Assembly (NCBI GenBank): GCA_041171045.1
Contig: JBEDMQ010000102.1
Span: 3,048 to 67,047, forward strand
Source: Pseudomonadota bacterium
Lineage (GTDB): Bacteria > Pseudomonadota > Gammaproteobacteria > Burkholderiales > Burkholderiaceae_A
Reading direction: 5' to 3'
DNA length: 64,000 nucleotides
The position numbers and the translations under genes were made by a program. Below are positions 20,129 through 28,658 of this stretch, in pieces. Numbering within the stretch: position 1 is the stretch's first letter; each line of letters starts with the position of its first letter. The notes under the pieces were generated by a model. That model worked only from the letters and a program-made list of their open reading frames with translations. It was not told where the DNA came from and ran no database searches.

Positions 20129-23100
20129 TCAGGCGACTGCGGCTTCTGCCGACTTCTGAGCAGCCATCTCGCCTAAGGCCCTTCGATACTCATTGGGGAA
20201 GACTTTGACGAACTTGGCCCTGGCGCTAGCCCAGTGATCCAGGAGCTCACGAGCACGAACCGATCCAGTCCACCGATGGTGATCCTCAATCAGCCTGCGC
20301 AGTTGTTGCTCGTCGGTCATTCCCTGATGCCAGATGCCCTGGTCGATCGTGTCGCGCTGTTCTGAGTCGGAGAGCACCTTGTCCAGGCTGACCATGGCCG
20401 TATTGCAACGGTCTGCAAAACGCCCGTCCTCGTCATAGACATAGGCCACGCCACCGGACATACCAGCGGCAAAGTTCCGACCGGTTTGACCAAGAACCAC
20501 GACGGTACCACCAGTCATGTACTCACAACCGTGGTCACCGGTCCCCTCGACCACAGTGGTGGCCCCGGAGAGTCGAACGGCGAAACGCTCACCAGCCACA
20601 CCCCGGAAGAAGGCCTCCCCCGAGGTGGCCCCGTAAAGCACCGTGTTGCCGACGATGATGTTGTCGTGCGCAACACCGCGGAACTCGATGGATGGTCTGA
20701 CCACAATTCGTCCACCAGACATGCCTTTACCGGTGTAATCGTTGGCATCGCCAATCAGGTATAGGGTGATGCCCTTGGCCAGGAAGGCACCAAACGACTG
20801 ACCACCCGTGCCCTCTAGCTGGATGTGGAGGGTGTCGTCTGGCAGACCGTCCGGATGGTGCTTGATCAGTTCACCCGACAACATGGCCCCAACGGTACGG
20901 TTGACGTTGGTGGTGACCTCGATGAACTGGACTTTCTCACCGCGCTCGATGGCGGGACGCGACTTCTCAATGAGCACCCGATCGAGGGCCTTGTCCAGGC
21001 CATGGTCCTGCGTCGCCGAATGACGACGCTGGGCCGGGTCACTGACCTCTGGCTGAGCCAGCAGGCGAGAGAAGTCCAGCCCCTTGGCTTTCCAGTGCTC
21101 GACACCTCTGCGCATGTCGATCAGATCGGAGCGGCCGATCAGGTCTTCGAAATGACGAATACCCAACTGAGCCATGATCTGCCGGGCTTCCTCCGCTATG
21201 AAGAAAAAGAAATTCACCACATGCTCTGGTCGACCCTGGAATTTCTTGCGCAGCACCGGGTCTTGGGTCGCCACACCGACAGGGCAGGTGTTCAGGTGGC
21301 ATTTACGCATCATGATGCAGCCCTCGACGACCAAGGGTGCCGTGGCAAACCCCATCTCATCTGCACCCAGCAAGGCTGCAATCACGACATCGCGGCCGGT
21401 CTTCATCTGACCGTCGGCCTGAACCCGGATGCGATCCCGCAGCCCATTGAGTACAAGGGTCTGCTGGGTCTCGGCCAGGCCGATTTCCCAGGGCGAACCT
21501 GCGTGTTTAATCGAGGACAGGGGTGAGGCACCCGTACCGCCATCGTGGCCGGCAATCACCAAATGATCAGCCTTGGCCTTGGCAACACCCGCTGCCACCG
21601 TTCCGACGCCGACTTCGGATACGAGCTTGACCGAGATGTCCGCATGGGAGGCCACGTTCTTGAGGTCGTGGATCAACTGGGCCAAATCTTCGATGGAGTA
21701 GATGTCATGGTGGGGTGGCGGAGAGATGAGTCCCACACCGGGCACCGAATGACGAAGCTCGCCGATGTACTCGGACACCTTACCGCCAGGCAGCTGCCCA
21801 CCCTCTCCGGGCTTGGCACCCTGTGCCATTTTGATCTGAACCTGATCGGCGGAGACCAAATACTCAGTGGTCACACCAAAGCGTCCAGAGGCCACTTGCT
21901 TGATTTTGGATCGCAGGCTGTCGCCCTGCTCCAGGCTGTAGTCGGACTCGATCTGTTTGCTGCCGATGACATCAGATAGTTTGGTCCCGGCCGTGATCTG
22001 AATGCCCTTGAGCTCATTGCGATACCGACGCTTGTCCTCACCGCCCTCGCCAGTATTGGACTTGCCACCGATTCGGTTCATCGCCACAGCAAGTGTGGCG
22101 TGAGCCTCAGTCGAGATAGAGCCCAGTGACATCGCACCAGTGGCAAATCTCTTAACGATCTCAGCCGCTGGCTCCACCTCGTCGAGGGGAATGGCCTTGG
22201 CAGGATCCACCTTGAACTCAAATAGGCCACGCAGCGTCATGTGCCGACGGCTCTGGTCGTTGATGATCTGAGCGTAATCCTTGTAGGTGTTGTAGCTGTT
22301 GGCGCGCGTAGAGTGCTGCAGCTTGGCAATGGCATCCGGGGTCCACATGTGTTCCTCGCCGCGGACACGCCAAGCATATTCACCGCCCGTTTCGAGGCGG
22401 TTGCTCAGGACTGGGTCGTCACCAAAGGCTTCGGTGTGAGTCCGAATGGCCTCCTCTGCCATTTCGAAGATACCAATCCCCTCGACAGCGCTCGGGGTGT
22501 TGGTGAAATACTGGTCGATGGTGGCCTGATTGATACCAATGGCCTCAAAGATCTGGGCGCCACAGTAGGACATGTAGGTGGAGATGCCCATCTTCGACAT
22601 GATCTTAGAGAGGCCCTTTCCGATGGCCTTGATGTAATTGGCCACCGCCTTCTCGGGGCTGAGATCGCCAGAAAGCGTCTTGTGAAAGTCCACAATGCTC
22701 TCCATGGCCAGGTAAGGATGAACCGCCTCAGCGCCATAACCGGCCAATACCGCGAAGTGATGAACCTCTCTGGCCGAGCCAGTTTCAACCACCAGGCCAG
22801 CCAGTGTGCGTTTGCCCTCTCGGACCAGGTGCTGATGAATCGCCGAGAGCGCCAGCAGGGCCGGAATGGCCACGCGGTCAGGGCTTACGGCCTTGTCGCT
22901 GATGATCAGAATGTTGGCGCCGGCGGCAATCGCATCAACTGCCTCAGCACAGACCGTCGCCAGCCGGGCCTCGATGCCTTCTTTGCCCCAGGCCAGGGGG
23001 TAGGTGATGTCAAGCACCTGGCTTCTGAATTTGCCACGGGTGTGCTGCTCAATGTCTCGAAGCCGTCGCATGTCCGCAAAATTCAGAATGGGCTGGCTGA

Positions 23101-24829
23101 CCTCGAGTCGCAGGGGTGGGTTGACCTGATTGATATCCAACAGGTTCGGTTTGGGCCCAATGAAGGAATTCAGCGACATGACGATGGCCTCACGGATGGG
23201 GTCGATCGGCGGATTCGTCACCTGGGCAAACAACTGCTTGAAGTAATGGTAGAGCGGCTTGTTCTTGTCGGACAGCACGGCCAGGGGAGAGTCGTTGCCC
23301 ATCGAACCAATGCCCTCTTCACCGGCCTGGGCCATTGGTGCCATCAAAAATTTTATGTCCTCTTGGGTGTAGCCAAACGCCTGCTGCCGGTCTAACAATG
23401 CCAGGGGACTGGGCTCTGGTGAGTTCTCACCCTGGGCATTTAGGCTTGCCAACTCCACACGGACGTTCTCGATCCACTGCTGGTAAGGACGAGACTTGGA
23501 CAGGGCACTCTTGAGCTCGTCATCATGAATCATGCGGCCCTGCTCAAGGTCGATCAGGAACATCTTGCCCGGCTGAAGACGCCATTTGCGAACAATCTTG
23601 CTCTCCGGGACTGGCAGCACGCCTGACTCGGAGGCCATAATCACCACATCATCCTCAGTGATGCAGTAGCGAGACGGACGCAGTCCATTGCGATCCAGCG
23701 TAGCGCCGATCTGACGGCCATCGGTGAAGACAATAGAGGCGGGGCCGTCCCAGGGCTCCATCATGGAGGCGTGGTATTCGTAGAAGGCTTTTCGGCTTTC
23801 CTCCATGGTGGTGTGCTGTTCCCATGGCTCAGGAATCATCATCATCACGGCATGGGCCAATGGATAGCCAGCGGCTACGAGCAGCTCCAGGCAATTGTCA
23901 AAGGTCGCCGTGTCGGACTGCCCAGCAAAGCTGATGGGATATAGCTTTTGGAGGTCTGCGCCCAGGACGGGGCTGTTCATCACGCCTTCACGGGCGCGCA
24001 TCCAGTTGTAGTTGCCCTTGACGGTGTTGATCTCACCATTGTGGGCGACCATTCGGTAGGGGTGGGCGAGAGGCCACTCGGGAAAGGTGTTGGTCGAAAA
24101 CCGCTGGTGGACCAGAGCCAAGGCGGATACACAGCGTGGGTCAGAGAGGTCCTTGAAGTAGACCCCCACCTGGTCGGCCAGCAACAGGCCCTTGTAGACA
24201 ATCGTGCGACTGGACATGGAGGGCACGTAATACTCTTTGCCGTGTTTGAGTCCCAAGGACTGAATCGCGCTGGAGGCGGTCTTGCGGATGACATAGAGCT
24301 TGCGTTCGAGGGCGTCTTGCACCACGACGTCGTTGCCCCGGCCAATGAAGATCTGACGCATCACGGGCTCTTTGGCCCGAACTCGAGGTGACATCGGCAT
24401 CTGGGCGTCGGTCGGCACGTCCCGCCAGCCCAAGACCACCTGTCCCTCAGCCACCACAGCCTTCTCAAGGGCGCGCTCGCAGGCCAGGCGGCTGGCGTGT
24501 TCCTTGGGCAGAAAGACCATGCCCACACCATATTCGCCGGGGGGCGGCAGAGCGACGCCCTGACGACTCATTTCCTCGCGAAAGAAGGCGTCGGGAATCT
24601 GCAACAGAATGCCAGCGCCGTCTCCCATCAGCGGATCCGCTCCAACAGCACCCCGGTGATCGAGGTTTTTCAGGATCTGCAGGCCCTGCTGGACCATGTC
24701 GTGGGACTTGCGACCGCGCATGTGGGCCACGAAGCCAACTCCGCACGCATCGTGCTCGTGGGCCGGATCGTAGAGGCCGAAGGCTTGCTGGCTGACGTTT
24801 TGCTCGGTAAAAGAAGGCGTTTGGGCCAT
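20129..24829 (-). CDS. gltB: Glutamate synthase large subunit
   Basis: EHDA|CGVGF (Cys1), [40 protein letters not shown]; start uncertain (24829 preferred, ORF open to 24871). Confidence 0.97.
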
Positions 24830-24859
24830 GACTCTGCTGCTCTCGTTTACAAAAAGGGC

Positions 24860-25010
24860 GTTCATTGTCACTCAAACGATTTTTTTTGGGTGAACAGAAA
24901 TCTCTTCAAACCCCCTTAAAATCGAGTTTTTTAATGGGGTCAGATCATTTTATTCACCCCAGCAAGATTTTTGATGTTTTTATTGGTGACATAACAAACA
25001 CAGGGGAAGG
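24860..25010 (-). promoter_or_regulatory. AT-rich gltBD upstream/promoter region
   Basis: Markedly AT-rich with several A/T tracts; GACAAT -10-like hexamer near 24864-24869; GGGGTCAG (24936-24943) and GGTGACAT (24985-24992) motifs. Confidence 0.6.
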
Positions 25011-25018
25011 GCCCCGCC

Positions 25019-25744
25019 CTAGCCAACCGAATCGGACGAGGCCTCGCTGGCCTGAGGCGTTTTGGGTGGCCGGCCTCTTGGACGAAGCGTCCATTGCTGG
25101 ACAAACCCAGGCGGGCATGCTGACCACCCCTGGGCAGACAGCATGGGGCGGCCCTGGGCCAAGCCCCGGTGAATGTTCGCCAACACCCCCTCCTCGAGAG
25201 GCTCCTGCAGCACTCGGCGGTAAGCCTGTTCTCGGTCAAACGGCGTATTCCCCAGGCGCCAGTAACTGGCCAGTTCACGCACCGGACTGCCGACTGGGGG
25301 GCGCTGTCCAGCCCAGACCCCGGCACTCGACCAAGGCCAATCAACGGCCAATCCCACCAGGCCCTGGCGCTGCGCTTGACCGTCAATGTAGCGAGCCACC
25401 GACAAGCCAAAGACATCGGCCTCGACCCAATAACTCCGATACCGGCCGTCAAACGGGGTCCCACTTCGAGACCATCGACGATTGAACATCGGTACGTAGC
25501 GACGCCCCAATTGCTGCATGACCTCCGCCACCGCGGAGGCCCGTTGGGGCGTGACCAGCCAATGCCCTTCCCGGTCGGTACAAGACCAGGCATGGACCAG
25601 CAACCCACAGCCCTGAGCAGCCTCTAGAAAAAAGTCCAGGTAAAGCTGCCGGTCTTGGGCATCCAGGCAGAAGGCGTGTCCACCATGCCCTCGCTGCATC
25701 AGGTGATAGCTGCGGCCCGTGGCAATGGCCCTCGCTCTCCTCAT
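25019..25744 (-). CDS. RAYT / Y1 (IS200-like HUH) transposase-derived protein with degenerate catalytic motif
   Basis: YHLMQRGH (cf. HvxqRGnn), HAWSCTDREGHWLVTP (cf. aYcLMxNHvHLl), YVPMFNRRWSRSGTPFDGRYRS (cf. FNxrhxRsGxLwegRf), RYIDG, DWPWSSA, YWRLGNTPFDREQAY, C-terminal PRGRP. Confidence 0.8.
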   Translation of the reverse strand: MRRARAIATGRSYHLMQRGHGGHAFCLDAQDRQLYLDFFLEAAQGCGLLVHAWSCTDREGHWLVTPQRASAVAEVMQQLGRRYVPMFNRRWSRSGTPFDGRYRSYWVEADVFGLSVARYIDGQAQRQGLVGLAVDWPWSSAGVWAGQRPPVGSPVRELASYWRLGNTPFDREQAYRRVLQEPLEEGVLANIHRGLAQGRPMLSAQGWSACPPGFVQQWTLRPRGRPPKTPQASEASSDSVG

Positions 25745-25766
25745 AGGCCTATCTGCCCATCTCGCC

Positions 25767-26927
25767 CTAAAGCCCGATCGGAGACGGCCAACAGGCCCTG
25801 CCGGGAAAGACTCTGGCATGGGTCAGGGCGGCATATCGATCGGTCATACCTGCAATCTCGTCCGCAGCGCGGCGATGGGGAGACCTGTCATCCGAAGCAT
25901 CAAACGGTTGCTCCAGCAACCAGCCGAATAAATCATGGATCACTCGCTCGGCCACATTCGTCATGTCCACCACGCGAGGATGGCGATAGAGCCGCTGCCG
26001 AAGAAACCGCTTGAGGTCCAAGACCTGTCGGCCCAACTCGAGAGAAAAACCAACCAGGGGCAGGGCTTGACGCCGGACATCCTGGTCGTCAGCGATGCCC
26101 TGGCTGAGCAGTTGCTGCCGGGTGGTCTGCGTCAGGTCATCCACCTGTTCGTTGATCATGCCGCGAATCACCTCAGCCATCAGACGGTGACGAGCCAATT
26201 GCGGGTGCGCTTGCTGCAATCGCCGCACATGAGGGGCCACCAGAGGCTGCTCAATGACCTCTTCAAACACCAGCAGCCCGGACCGAAGGCCATCATCCAA
26301 GTCGTGGTGGTTGTAGGCTAGCTCGTCAGCCAAATTGGCCAGCTGAGCCTCTAGGCTCGGAGACTCGCGTTTGACAAACCGGTGTGCGACCTCGCCCAAC
26401 TCCTGAGCCAGAGAATCTGCGCAGTGCTTCAGGATGCCCTCTCGGGTCTCAAATGTCAGGTTAAGGCCATCGAAAGCTGCGTAACGCTGCTCCAATTTAT
26501 CCACCACCCGCAAGCTTTGCAGGTTGTGCTCAAAACCTTTTTGACCCGCGGTGGCATCTCGTAGCGCCTGATTGAGGGCATGCTGGCCAGCGTGGCCGAA
26601 AGGCGTGTGCCCAAGATCGTGCGCCAGGCAGATGGCCTCGGTCAGCTCTTCATCTAGCTGAAGGCGTCGTGCAACAGATCGGGCGATCTGCGCCACCTCT
26701 AGACTGTGCGTCAGGCGCGTTCGAAAGAGGTCACCCTCATGGTTTACAAAGACCTGCGTCTTGTAGAGCAGTTTTCTAAAAGCGGTTGAATGAACAATGC
26801 GGTCTCGATCCCGCTGGAAAGCGGATCGACCCATCGGCTCTGATTCGGGGTGAAGACGGCCCCTGCTGCGATGGGCCTGGGCCGCAAACGGGGCCACCAG
26901 CGGACCGGTCTGCGCAGACCCGCTCAC
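25767..26927 (-). CDS. dgt: Deoxyguanosinetriphosphate triphosphohydrolase
   Basis: FQRDRDRIVHS, RTRLTHSLEV, AHDLGHTPFGH, AGMTDRYA. Confidence 0.95.
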   Translation of the reverse strand: MSGSAQTGPLVAPFAAQAHRSRGRLHPESEPMGRSAFQRDRDRIVHSTAFRKLLYKTQVFVNHEGDLFRTRLTHSLEVAQIARSVARRLQLDEELTEAICLAHDLGHTPFGHAGQHALNQALRDATAGQKGFEHNLQSLRVVDKLEQRYAAFDGLNLTFETREGILKHCADSLAQELGEVAHRFVKRESPSLEAQLANLADELAYNHHDLDDGLRSGLLVFEEVIEQPLVAPHVRRLQQAHPQLARHRLMAEVIRGMINEQVDDLTQTTRQQLLSQGIADDQDVRRQALPLVGFSLELGRQVLDLKRFLRQRLYRHPRVVDMTNVAERVIHDLFGWLLEQPFDASDDRSPHRRAADEIAGMTDRYAALTHARVFPGRACWPSPIGL

Positions 26928-28102
26928 GCAGATGCCAGCCCTTTTTTTGATGCCTCAATGGCCGTGCGAACCAAGGCATCATCCACCGCCTTGAGTTCGG
27001 ACTGACCAAGCCCTTTGAGCAGGATGTACCGAATGGCACCGCCAGAAGATTTTTTGTCATGGGCCATCCAGTCCAGGTAATCCTGCGCTGGCCAACCAGG
27101 AGGCGTGAGCGGCAAACCAGCTTGATGGATGAGGTTAATCACTCGCTTGAACGATGGGGTATCGAGTTGACCCAGCTGAGATGACAGCAATGCTGCCATG
27201 GCCATACCGCAGCCCACCGCCTCACCATGAAGCCAGCTGCCGTAGCCCATACCAGCCTCGATGGCATGTCCAAAGGTGTGGCCAAAATTAAGCAGAGCCC
27301 TCTGGCCAGAGGATTCCCGTTCATCAGCGGATACGACCCCCGCCTTGAGCTGGCAAGACCGCTCAATGGCATAGGCCAGAGCAGCAGAATCCTTCGCAAC
27401 CAGAGCGGACATGTTGGCCTCTAGCCAGCTAAAAAAGTCGGCATCCAAAATACAGCCGTATTTAATGATCTCCGCAAGCCCAGCGGAGACCTCTCTCGCA
27501 GGAAGCGTTCTCAGAACCAACATATCAATGATGACGGCCCTGGGTTGATAAAAAGCGCCAATCATGTTCTTGCCCAAGGGGTGGTTAATGGCCGTCTTGC
27601 CGCCCACCGAGGAGTCGACCTGAGAGAGCAGGGTGGTGGGGACCTGAACAAAATCAATACCACGCTGGTAACAGGCCGCTGCAAAGCCGGCCATGTCCCC
27701 AATCACACCGCCCCCCAAGGCGACGACCGTGGCCGATCGATCCACGTGCTCTGCCATGAGGTGATCAAAAATCTTCATGAGACTGGTCATGTCTTTATGG
27801 GACTCGCCATCGGGCAACACCACCTGCGAAGTCTGGCAGCCCAAATCCGTCAGAGCCGCCAGGACCTGATGACCATACAGCGGCATGACCACCTCATTGG
27901 AGACCACCACCACACGACCGGGCCGGCCCGACCGGCCGGGCCCAAGGGCCTGACGCCAGACTTTGGCTTGATCGAGCAGACCCTCGCCGATCCAAATTGG
28001 ATAACTGCGGTCAGCCAAGCCGACCTGGACCGTCGCACGTACGCCATGCGGTCCGGATTCTGCGGCGGTCTTATCGAGAGGGCGCGGTGAGATCTGATTC
28101 AT
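26924..28102 (-). CDS. aroB: 3-dehydroquinate synthase
   Basis: LGGGVIGDMAGF, PTTLLSQVDSSVGGKT, LNFGHTFGHAIE, LHGEAV; start at MNQI (28102). Confidence 0.96.
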   Translation of the reverse strand: MNQISPRPLDKTAAESGPHGVRATVQVGLADRSYPIWIGEGLLDQAKVWRQALGPGRSGRPGRVVVVSNEVVMPLYGHQVLAALTDLGCQTSQVVLPDGESHKDMTSLMKIFDHLMAEHVDRSATVVALGGGVIGDMAGFAAACYQRGIDFVQVPTTLLSQVDSSVGGKTAINHPLGKNMIGAFYQPRAVIIDMLVLRTLPAREVSAGLAEIIKYGCILDADFFSWLEANMSALVAKDSAALAYAIERSCQLKAGVVSADERESSGQRALLNFGHTFGHAIEAGMGYGSWLHGEAVGCGMAMAALLSSQLGQLDTPSFKRVINLIHQAGLPLTPPGWPAQDYLDWMAHDKKSSGGAIRYILLKGLGQSELKAVDDALVRTAIEASKKGLASA

Positions 28103-28658
28103 GCTGGGAGTCTTCGAATGTATGAGAAATAAGGCCATCGGCCAGCAGATGGCCGATGACCTGACTGACCACCTGGCTAGGCGACCCTTGGCTACTGGGG
28201 ACCACCACCGAGGCCAAGTCACGATAAACCGGGTCTCTCGATTGGTAAAGCGCCTCTAGGGTCGCCTTGGGGTCTTGAGACTGGGTGAGCAGTGGCCGAC
28301 TGGTGTCCTGCCGCAGCCGCTGCCAGAGTTGTCTGGGTAATGCGTGGAGGTAAACCACGTAGCCCTGGGCGATCACTGGCCGATTGTCCGGCTGTATCGG
28401 AGCGCCTCCGCCAGTCGTCACAATCTGGCCCGGTTGGGCCATGATCTCAGCGAGTACCTTGGACTCCCTCCGACGAAAGCCCGCCTCACCCTCCACCTCA
28501 AAAATGGTCGCCACGGACGTCCCGCAACGGGACTCGATGACCTGGTCGGTGTCGACCAGAGGCCATTGAATTCGCTGTGCCAGCCGCCGACCAATCGTGG
28601 TCTTGCCGGCGCCCATCAGGCCGATCAGGACGATATTTCTTTTTGGCTGGCCATTCAT
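28071..28658 (-). CDS. aroK: Shikimate kinase
   Basis: GLMGAGKTTIG, EGEAGFRRRE, TTGGG, RPLL. Confidence 0.95.
   Translation of the reverse strand: MNGQPKRNIVLIGLMGAGKTTIGRRLAQRIQWPLVDTDQVIESRCGTSVATIFEVEGEAGFRRRESKVLAEIMAQPGQIVTTGGGAPIQPDNRPVIAQGYVVYLHALPRQLWQRLRQDTSRPLLTQSQDPKATLEALYQSRDPVYRDLASVVVPSSQGSPSQVVSQVIGHLLADGLISHTFEDSQHESDLTAPSR

Follow-up and report, generated by a model that had tools for sequence, protein, structure and literature searches.

Eroded descendants of a Y1 transposase retained upstream of gltB in Burkholderiales: candidate regulators of glutamate synthase

Introduction

Why would a transposase-like gene with an altered active site stay directly upstream of the gene for the large subunit of glutamate synthase, gltB? 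The question is raised by a 241-codon open reading frame (ORF) in a 64,000-nucleotide stretch of Burkholderiales DNA (assembly GCA_041171045.1, contig JBEDMQ010000102.1, positions 3,048 to 67,047), which we call the window. On its minus strand, the window carries aroB, dgt, the ORF, a 189-bp spacer and gltB, in this order. An initial annotation had described an uninterrupted Y1-transposase-like ORF 22 bp past the dgt stop, with E-G-H at the HUH (His-hydrophobic-His) position, a retained tyrosine (Tyr), a PRGRP AT-hook and an AT-rich region upstream of gltB, and had proposed a nuclease-dead transposase kept as a DNA-binding factor for gltBD. The positions of the ORF, its motifs and the gap to dgt were all correct, and the spacer was indeed AT-rich, with a G+C content of 41% compared with 64% in the ORF.

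The reading that we put forward, to which we give an even chance, is that the ORF encodes an immobilized, domesticated descendant of a TIRYT-type Y1 (HUH) transposase and is a candidate DNA-binding regulator of gltBD. The gene appears to have lain between aroB/dgt and gltB since the early radiation of the core Burkholderiales.

Fold and family of the window protein

We compared the protein encoded by the ORF (the window protein) with curated family models. It scored 12.3 bits on Pfam Y1_Tnp (PF01797; gathering cut-off 23) and 21.6 bits on NCBIfam REP_Tyr_transpos (NF047646; cut-off 80), below the cut-off in both cases, and a direct sequence search of the PDB with it returned nothing relevant. 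Intact orthologs linked to gltB passed on Y1_Tnp with 33-57 bits. Five gltB-linked orthologs were scored on NF047646: two intact ones reached 83-84 bits and a third 74.5, and the two with altered HUH or Tyr positions gave 55.7-75.3. Because the similarity to curated models is weak, it is the predicted fold, together with intermediate homologs, that carries the family assignment. An alignment-based AlphaFold2 (AF2) model of the protein had a predicted local distance difference test score (pLDDT) of 92.8 and a predicted template modeling score (pTM) of 0.87. This predicted structure showed the Y1 HUH fold, with E. coli TnpA-REP as the best Foldseek match (4er8_A, E = 1.7e-7), followed by the ISDra2 and IS608 transposases (2xm3, 2a6m and 2vju, E to about 1e-4).

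The window protein belongs to subclass 2.1 of the TnpA-Y1 proteins (Quentin et al. 2018, PMC6006769), which is the same as RAYT group 1 (Bertels et al. 2017, PMC5581495) and the TIRYTs (Di Nocera et al. 2013, PMC3733652). Proteins of this subclass have about 238 amino acids, with a Ser-Ser motif following the core and a conserved C-terminal extension (Table 1 of PMC6006769), and TIRYT genes are bordered on both sides by inverted repeats with GGGGWSAS (PMC3733652). The grounds for the placement were length, the core seen in intact members (NHVH and YIELNP), the WSS motif, conservation of the C-terminal extension and the lack of classical repetitive extragenic palindromes (REPs): the window protein has 241 amino acids with WPWSS after the core, and its extension is conserved in 106 homologs. 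The gltB-linked genes also share with the group a low copy number and GGGGWSAS terminal inverted repeats, here GGGGTCAG. The window copy differs from the group in its E-G-H, the loss of NP, the lack of a left repeat and of dispersed repeats, and scores below the cut-offs of the curated hidden Markov models. TnpA-REP of E. coli (4ER8), its best structural match, is likewise a single-copy, vertically inherited transposase, but the window protein is only 15% identical to it, carries a 90-amino-acid extension with an AT-hook and goes with another type of repeat sequence.

In the AF2 model, residues 150-216 formed confident helices packing on the core, and the last 25 residues, which hold the AT-hook-like RPRGRPPK (residues 221-228), had low confidence. 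The GNTPF run in the helical part was present in 52 of 52 gltB-adjacent copies and absent from a 37-copy clade of non-adjacent paralogs and from the matches in other orders; R171 was, like GNTPF, invariant in the 106 closest homologs. The AT-hook named in the initial annotation proved essentially invariant as RPRGRP: among these homologs G224, R225 and P226 were invariant, and R221, P222 and R223 were conserved in at least 90%. As in AT-hook proteins (PF02178; HMGA-type), an R-G-R-P core with proline and basic flanks lies in a disordered tail, and A/T tracts occur in the putative target. It differs from them in its sub-threshold Pfam score (12.7 bits against a cut-off of 17.4, with E ≤ 1 in 10 of 49 orthologs), in being a single hook at a bacterial C-terminus and in that its binding is putative. 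We also considered the C-terminal part as a recognizable helix-turn-helix or DnaA-C domain, an idea taken from PMC6006769, and dropped it on the outcomes of isolated folding, Foldseek, Pfam and ESM Atlas: for this part Pfam gave the sub-threshold AT_hook alone, and ESM Atlas gave short clusters without names and nothing else.

Fixation at gltB and descent

In a subsample of 400 genomes spread across all 61 families that make up the GTDB order of the window, 190 genomes had a relative of the window protein. In 28 of the 30 best loci the next gene downstream, on the same strand, was gltB, and the upstream neighbor was usually dgt or aroB. With 60 further loci included, 52 of 91 copies adjoined gltB, and these came from nine Burkholderiales families (f1, the window's own, and f10, f13, f23, f36, f37, f58, f60 and f61). 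A second scan, of species-representative genomes, used the peptide motif WxLGNTPF[ED] and so defined its set by motif and not by synteny. It yielded at least 597 confirmed relatives, and among the best 80 of these loci 77 had gltB 80-310 bp downstream. The hosts named among the motif-defined loci listed were Roseateles, Ideonella, Pelomonas, Leptothrix, Herbaspirillum, Janthinobacterium and Lautropia, and the listing includes a cultured Burkholderiales isolate with 87% identity across 220 aligned residues. These counts bear out the statement in the initial annotation that a transposase gene precedes gltB in many Burkholderiales.

On a protein tree from a quick search, 37 of the 39 non-adjacent copies formed one clade (starred) that mixes host families, with no host clustering at all for families f19 and f28. 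The gltB-adjacent copies grouped by host family: they required 11 label changes, where the possible minimum is 8 and shuffled labels gave a mean of 35.6; none of 200 shuffles was as low. In a class-wide sample (400 genomes of the whole class), the best matches in other orders had an intact core, no GNTPF and no gltB neighbor; L113, one of these loci, belongs to an unpublished genome (G541), and the result holds without it. Taken together, the synteny counts and the clustering by host family indicate one old TIRYT-type insertion upstream of gltB with mainly vertical descent; a test of vertical inheritance had been suggested in the initial annotation.

Repeated site-specific insertion before gltB could also produce such loci. 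It would fit the patchy distribution inside families, the junction in one genome (G022) that resembles a clean empty site, and the splitting of families f36, f58, f61 and f13 on the protein tree. We regard it as very improbable, since the host-family clustering is near its minimum, eroded and immobile copies without a left end occupy the same place, and the gltB-linked GNTPF signature is absent from the more mobile paralog clade.

Remnants of the transposon ends

The statement in the initial annotation that no insertion sequence ends lie beside the gene was wrong. The spacer holds two remnants of the right terminal repeat, the proximal and the distal right-end box (Table 1). The complete arrangement was seen at six intact loci (L014-L016, L018, L022 and L026): a left repeat AATTGGGGTCAGAGTC lies 26-59 bp before the start, a proximal right repeat CTGTCCCCAATT directly past the stop, and a distal right repeat GACTCTGACCCCAATT, the true inverted partner of the left one, 48-50 bp beyond the proximal repeat. 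These repeats agree with the GGGGWSAS of TIRYTs. In the window the right-side copies alone remain; on the left, dgt abuts the gene and no repeat is left. The degenerate proximal box matches other families in its position and in its 48-50 bp spacing to the distal box. In each box an A/T tract follows the G+C core, as an AT-hook would require. In an alignment of nine genomes of the window's family, with saturated synonymous sites, the distal box with its flanks was the sole invariant run of the spacer.

The distal box can also pair with a downstream GGGGG block in an imperfect hairpin; one of 200 shuffles did as well or better. In 8 of 9 aligned relatives a GGG(G)T block stands at similar spacing, and the hairpin could be a degenerate tail-to-tail doublet.

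Erosion of the active site and loss of dispersed repeats

We then examined the catalytic residues across the orthogroup. The window protein has Glu in place of the first His, and its Tyr motif region reads YIDGQA, in which Y119 (codon 25390..25388) is kept, as it is in the closest clade, and the NP of YxxxNP is lost. Nine of the 10 genomes in the window's family have Glu at the first His and the tenth (G080) has Val, and the Tyr position is W or A in all of the family's genomes outside the window's own small clade. Both His residues and the Tyr were all kept in 23 of the 106 closest database homologs, and Glu was the commonest residue at the first His (56/106). In the paralog clade, RYIE.NP was present in 37 of 37 copies, with N-H-hydrophobic-H (MTNHVHLL or a near variant) in 35 and NQVH in 2. 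H-x-H, Tyr and N or Q at +4 occurred together in 25 of the 52 gltB-linked copies, and at least 10 changes of catalytic state were needed on the tree.

We counted genomic copies of the 12-mer CTGACCCYAWTT in hosts of intact and eroded enzymes. The 25 genomes with intact enzymes had a median of 5 copies (range 0-48; at least 4 copies in 18 of 25), and the 27 with eroded enzymes a median of 1 (range 0-3; at least 4 in 0 of 27). These counts, with the residue changes, indicate that catalysis was lost repeatedly in the gltB-linked orthogroup, together with the dispersed repeats, which answers the suggestion in the initial annotation that HUH/Tyr erosion be checked.

The highest count came from G069, an intact-enzyme genome with 48 matches to CTGACCCYAWTT against 0 for a control pattern, mostly in intergenic inverted doublets. 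About 24 intergenic doublets, each made of TTAATTAGGGTCAGAGTCGAATT, a loop and the complement, were seen there (L091-L102; for example L092:58-118). Two of them folded as near-perfect single-stranded DNA (ssDNA) hairpins, at -26.6 and -26.9 kcal/mol with z scores of -11 and -14. The doublets are a REPIN-like population in a RAYT group that has been described as not REP-associated. The intact relatives of the window protein thus resemble RAYT-REPIN systems in going with dispersed hairpin doublets; the window's lineage has kept the gene although its repeat population has died out. In the window's own genome, the 11-mer CTGACCCCATT occurred once, in the gltB spacer, so that a dispersed REP/REPIN hairpin population was not found there. 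The looser CTGACCCYAWTT had three matches in this genome, and we rejected the box motif as a dispersed regulon site because the other two matches are one G+C-rich, coding-like sequence present on two contigs.

These findings bear on a further alternative, that the window protein is still an active HUH enzyme which uses a variant metal site (E59, H61 and Q123) with Tyr119 and acts on ssDNA at the hairpin close to the distal box, by nicking or some other processing, for instance in replication or transcription. Active HUH enzymes with a single His exist. Tyr119 is kept in the closest clade, the Gln at +4 is like that of IS200-type Y...Q enzymes, the Glu at the first His position is conserved, and the local hairpin has a z score of -2.8. 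With Tyr119 kept and E59, H61 and Q123 as possible metal ligands, the window protein is not certainly nuclease-dead. We nevertheless consider an active enzyme improbable, because sister species (47-55% identity) have W or A for the Tyr under equal constraint, the genome has no dispersed target copies, and the left end is missing. The Tyr-less sister copies, which are under the same constraint, show that the conserved function can do without the Tyr.

Purifying selection on the gene

The initial annotation had suggested a test of selection, and the result was strong purifying selection. Between the window copy and that of a congener (G129), the nonsynonymous rate (dN) was 0.092 and the synonymous rate (dS) 1.34, which puts dN/dS at about 0.07; in the sister genus, comparison among the four Tyr-less copies gave dN of 0.17-0.20, and dS was saturated in all pairs compared. 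For the N-terminal part of gltB at the same loci the ratio was 0.01-0.08. The Y1-derived protein evolves several times faster than gltB, yet far from neutrally. A copy of the gene was present in 10 of 10 genomes of the window's family, and its frame was open in 9. Together with the invariant motifs, these results indicate that purifying selection continues on the fold, the GNTPF region and the AT-hook.

A decaying relic that has no present function and merely awaits deletion would be consistent with the very low scores on curated models, the long stem branch of the window's family on the protein tree and an in-frame stop in one genome of the family. It is hardly credible given a dN/dS of about 0.07 with saturated dS, a frame kept open in nine of ten streamlined genomes (1.6-2.2 Mb) across two genera, invariant motifs outside the active site and a confident AF2 model.

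Co-occurrence of the boxes with the gene

To relate the boxes to the protein, we used two families, with 25 sampled f23 genomes that had a gltB match and 28 f13 gltB loci. In f23, the gene and the boxes lay directly upstream of gltB in 17 of the 25 genomes, and one further locus ran into the edge of its contig. In four genomes (G801, G813, G818 and G332), aroB-dgt-Y1 lay apart from gltB (at 4.8 kb, on other contigs or at 1.5 kb); the boxes remained at gltB and none traveled with the displaced gene. Two others, G022 and G079, had no relative of the protein anywhere in the genome and no boxes. In f13, the gene and the boxes were found together at 10 loci, and neither at 16 (two of these with just 144-202 bp of upstream sequence), where the locus alone and not the whole genome was searched for the gene; one contig-edge locus had a box, with the upstream content beyond the contig. 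No genome with boxes and without the protein was found among these 25 f23 and 28 f13 gltB loci. This co-occurrence is support and not proof, because the genomes are related and the element has a single-insertion origin.

The main rival to our reading treats the boxes as cis elements exapted by the gltB promoter (for example spacing elements, UP-like elements or sites of another factor), the protein as kept for a job unrelated to gltB, and the adjacency as a frozen accident of one old insertion. It is favored by f23, where the boxes stay with gltB once the gene is displaced, by a -35/-10-like conserved block that begins about 10 bp past the distal box in many families, and by f13, where the gene and the boxes come and go as a unit. 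The lack of box-bearing genomes without the protein in the two families speaks against it, as do the specificity of GNTPF for the gltB-linked orthogroup and the searches, which hint at no alternative function. We judge it unlikely.

Several sequence blocks near the boxes were also observed. Directly after the distal box stands a conserved block made of GTTGA, about 14-17 nt and a TGCGGCGCAGTAGAGT-like sequence, with a small palindrome TGCGnCGCA; it was seen in the spacers of L014-L016, L020, L022, L025, L027 and L029 and in many f23 loci. This block probably represents the gltB promoter and may include a site for another regulator. A different downstream block, TTTTAWAAGGGGTTT, is found in the window's family. 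In G022 (L154), dgt runs straight into a promoter-like block, ..GTAATTGGGTTGATAC.., as a clean empty site, which could be a precise loss or the pre-insertion state. The f13 loci without the transposase gene (L169, L171, L173-L177 and L180) share a different conserved gltB leader with TATACT or TATAGT, then ..TTCGAC.. and then ..GCTGCACTGCG.., which points to another control region at loci that lack the element.

A proposed mechanism and its weight

We propose the following course for the domesticated descendant. Where the enzyme is intact, the terminal repeat of the element still occurs as dispersed hairpin doublets. The window's lineage would have lost transposase activity (Glu for His, NP lost, Tyr-less sisters, no left end and no dispersed copies) and has retained, under purifying selection, the Y1 fold, the GNTPF helical extension, the RPRGRP AT-hook and the two right-end boxes. 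The protein, which may be dimeric as other Y1 enzymes are, would recognize the G+C core of the boxes, with its AT-hook docking in the A/T tract adjoining the box, and the bound protein would modulate the use of the gltBD promoter, with either sign.

The initial proposal of a domesticated gltB regulator is thus strengthened in part. Comparison of genomes supports its transposase ancestry, its fixation at gltB, the erosion, the selection, the conserved AT-hook and the conservation and co-occurrence of the end boxes; from these we infer that the protein may bind the boxes and control gltBD transcription, and that it may have lost its nuclease activity. A wider claim falls just short of an even chance: this could be the first bacterial HUH/Y1 transposase turned transcription factor, eroded, with its retained end boxes as the operator and an AT-hook as the docking element, tuning glutamate synthase across the core Burkholderiales, and with the intact-enzyme lineages and their REPIN-like repeats as a living intermediate.

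A number of observations weigh against a regulator. Y1 enzymes normally read ssDNA hairpins and not duplex operators. The C-terminal 97 amino acids folded alone with a pTM of 0.40 and had no Foldseek/PDB match, which gives no confident domain. Our sigma-70 consensus scan placed no promoter in the region, so the boxes are not positioned relative to a transcription start. Many relatives without the gene and the boxes keep gltB, and the protein would therefore be an accessory regulator at most. The support for binding and for an effect on expression is comparative, and the co-occurrence is partly historical because the protein and the boxes came from one insertion. The four f23 genomes with a separated gene fit cis-only promoter boxes equally well, and another f23 genome, G822, has the protein and no boxes at its gltB-like match. 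Phylogenetically independent pairs always had more CTGACCCYAWTT copies with the intact than with the eroded enzyme, but only five pairs were usable (p about 0.125). Finally, in the G080 copy (L010, in the window's genus) a TAA interrupts the frame and the HUH and Tyr positions are changed, and an insertion of about 0.7 kb separates this copy from gltB. The copy is probably a pseudogene, which means that the gene can be lost even inside the window's genus; box-like motifs still adjoin gltB there.

Relation to known systems

Transposases domesticated as regulators are well known from eukaryotes. Among bacterial proteins, TnpB has recently joined them through the TldR repressors, and its Y1 TnpA partner has, to our knowledge, not been described in such a role. 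The two cases share an IS200/IS605-type component, repeated loss of catalysis and, as we propose for the gltB-linked protein, reuse in the control of a host gene; TldR (for example PMC13622181) is derived from TnpB, is RNA-guided and has an experimentally shown function, whereas here the component is a Y1 TnpA and the regulation is proposed from comparisons. Our literature search gave no relevant link of RAYT- or IS200-like genes with gltB and no relevant report of an inactive HUH transposase as a regulator. The TIRYT paper (PMC3733652) and the TnpA-Y1 classification (PMC6006769) do not mention gltB or glutamate, and GNTPF, the AT-hook and repeated catalytic loss were not found in their accessible parts. 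The family itself is known, and the new elements are the gltB linkage, the GNTPF/RPRGRP orthogroup, the repeated catalytic loss and the retention of the boxes.

The orthogroup offers a natural series, from active copies with dispersed repeats through partial loss to fully eroded copies in which the protein, the AT-hook and the boxes persist, and the eroded copies sit next to a central nitrogen-assimilation operon. The host role of single-copy RAYT-like genes, a long-open question, becomes testable here with a defined protein, a 110-bp DNA target and gltBD as the readout. In at least 597 species-level genomes the gene is probably mis-annotated as a plain 'transposase'.

Other features of the locus

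The features of the region are listed in Table 1.

Table 1. Coordinates of the Y1-derived gene, its motifs and the surrounding features in the window
Feature	Position	Strand	Remark
Y1-transposase-derived ORF, P0001	25744..25019	-	241 amino acids and stop, without interruption; isoelectric point 9.9 (basic)
HUH position E59-G60-H61	25570..25562	-	First His to Glu; no His-hydrophobic-His
Tyr motif region Y119-I-D-G-Q123	25390..25376	-	Tyr kept, NP of YxxxNP lost, Gln at +4
G165-N-T-P-F169, signature of the gltB-linked orthogroup	25252..25238	-	Invariant in 106 homologs
R221-P-R-G-R-P226, AT-hook-like, in disordered C-terminal tail	25084..25067	-	Tail pLDDT 61-73
Weak terminator-like hairpin directly 3' of the ORF stop	25017..25000	-	6 pairs, then T-rich tail
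Proximal right-end box aTGTCACCAAT, degenerate CTGTCCCCAAT	24992..24982	-	49 bp upstream of distal box
Distal right-end box CTGACCCCATT, reverse complement of TIRYT repeat core GGGGTCAG	24943..24933	-	Followed by A-tract
Imperfect hairpin, distal box paired with downstream GGGGG block	24941..24909	-	ssDNA fold -9 kcal/mol, z -2.8
gltB, glutamate synthase large subunit, downstream neighbor (conserved)	24829..20129	-
dgt-like HD phosphohydrolase, upstream neighbor	26927..25767	-	Stop at 25769..25767
aroB, beyond dgt	28222..26924	-

The Y1-derived gene has one copy in the window's own genome (1.23 Mb, 73% complete). A 266-amino-acid reading from an upstream ATG was rejected, as it overlaps dgt and the homologs all start at the shorter start. 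The N-terminal part of the neighboring gltB was 75-96% identical over the sampled order. The terminator-like hairpin past the ORF stop would part an aroB-dgt-Y1 transcript from gltB; the region has two terminator-like sites, where chance alone would give 1.1. An Rfam scan of 24700-25900 returned zero families, and the spacer is therefore no known RNA element. One 41-nt stretch is shared by two contigs of the genome (C37:~1749 and C38:~962) and is probably an assembly overlap or duplicate in the metagenome-assembled genome.

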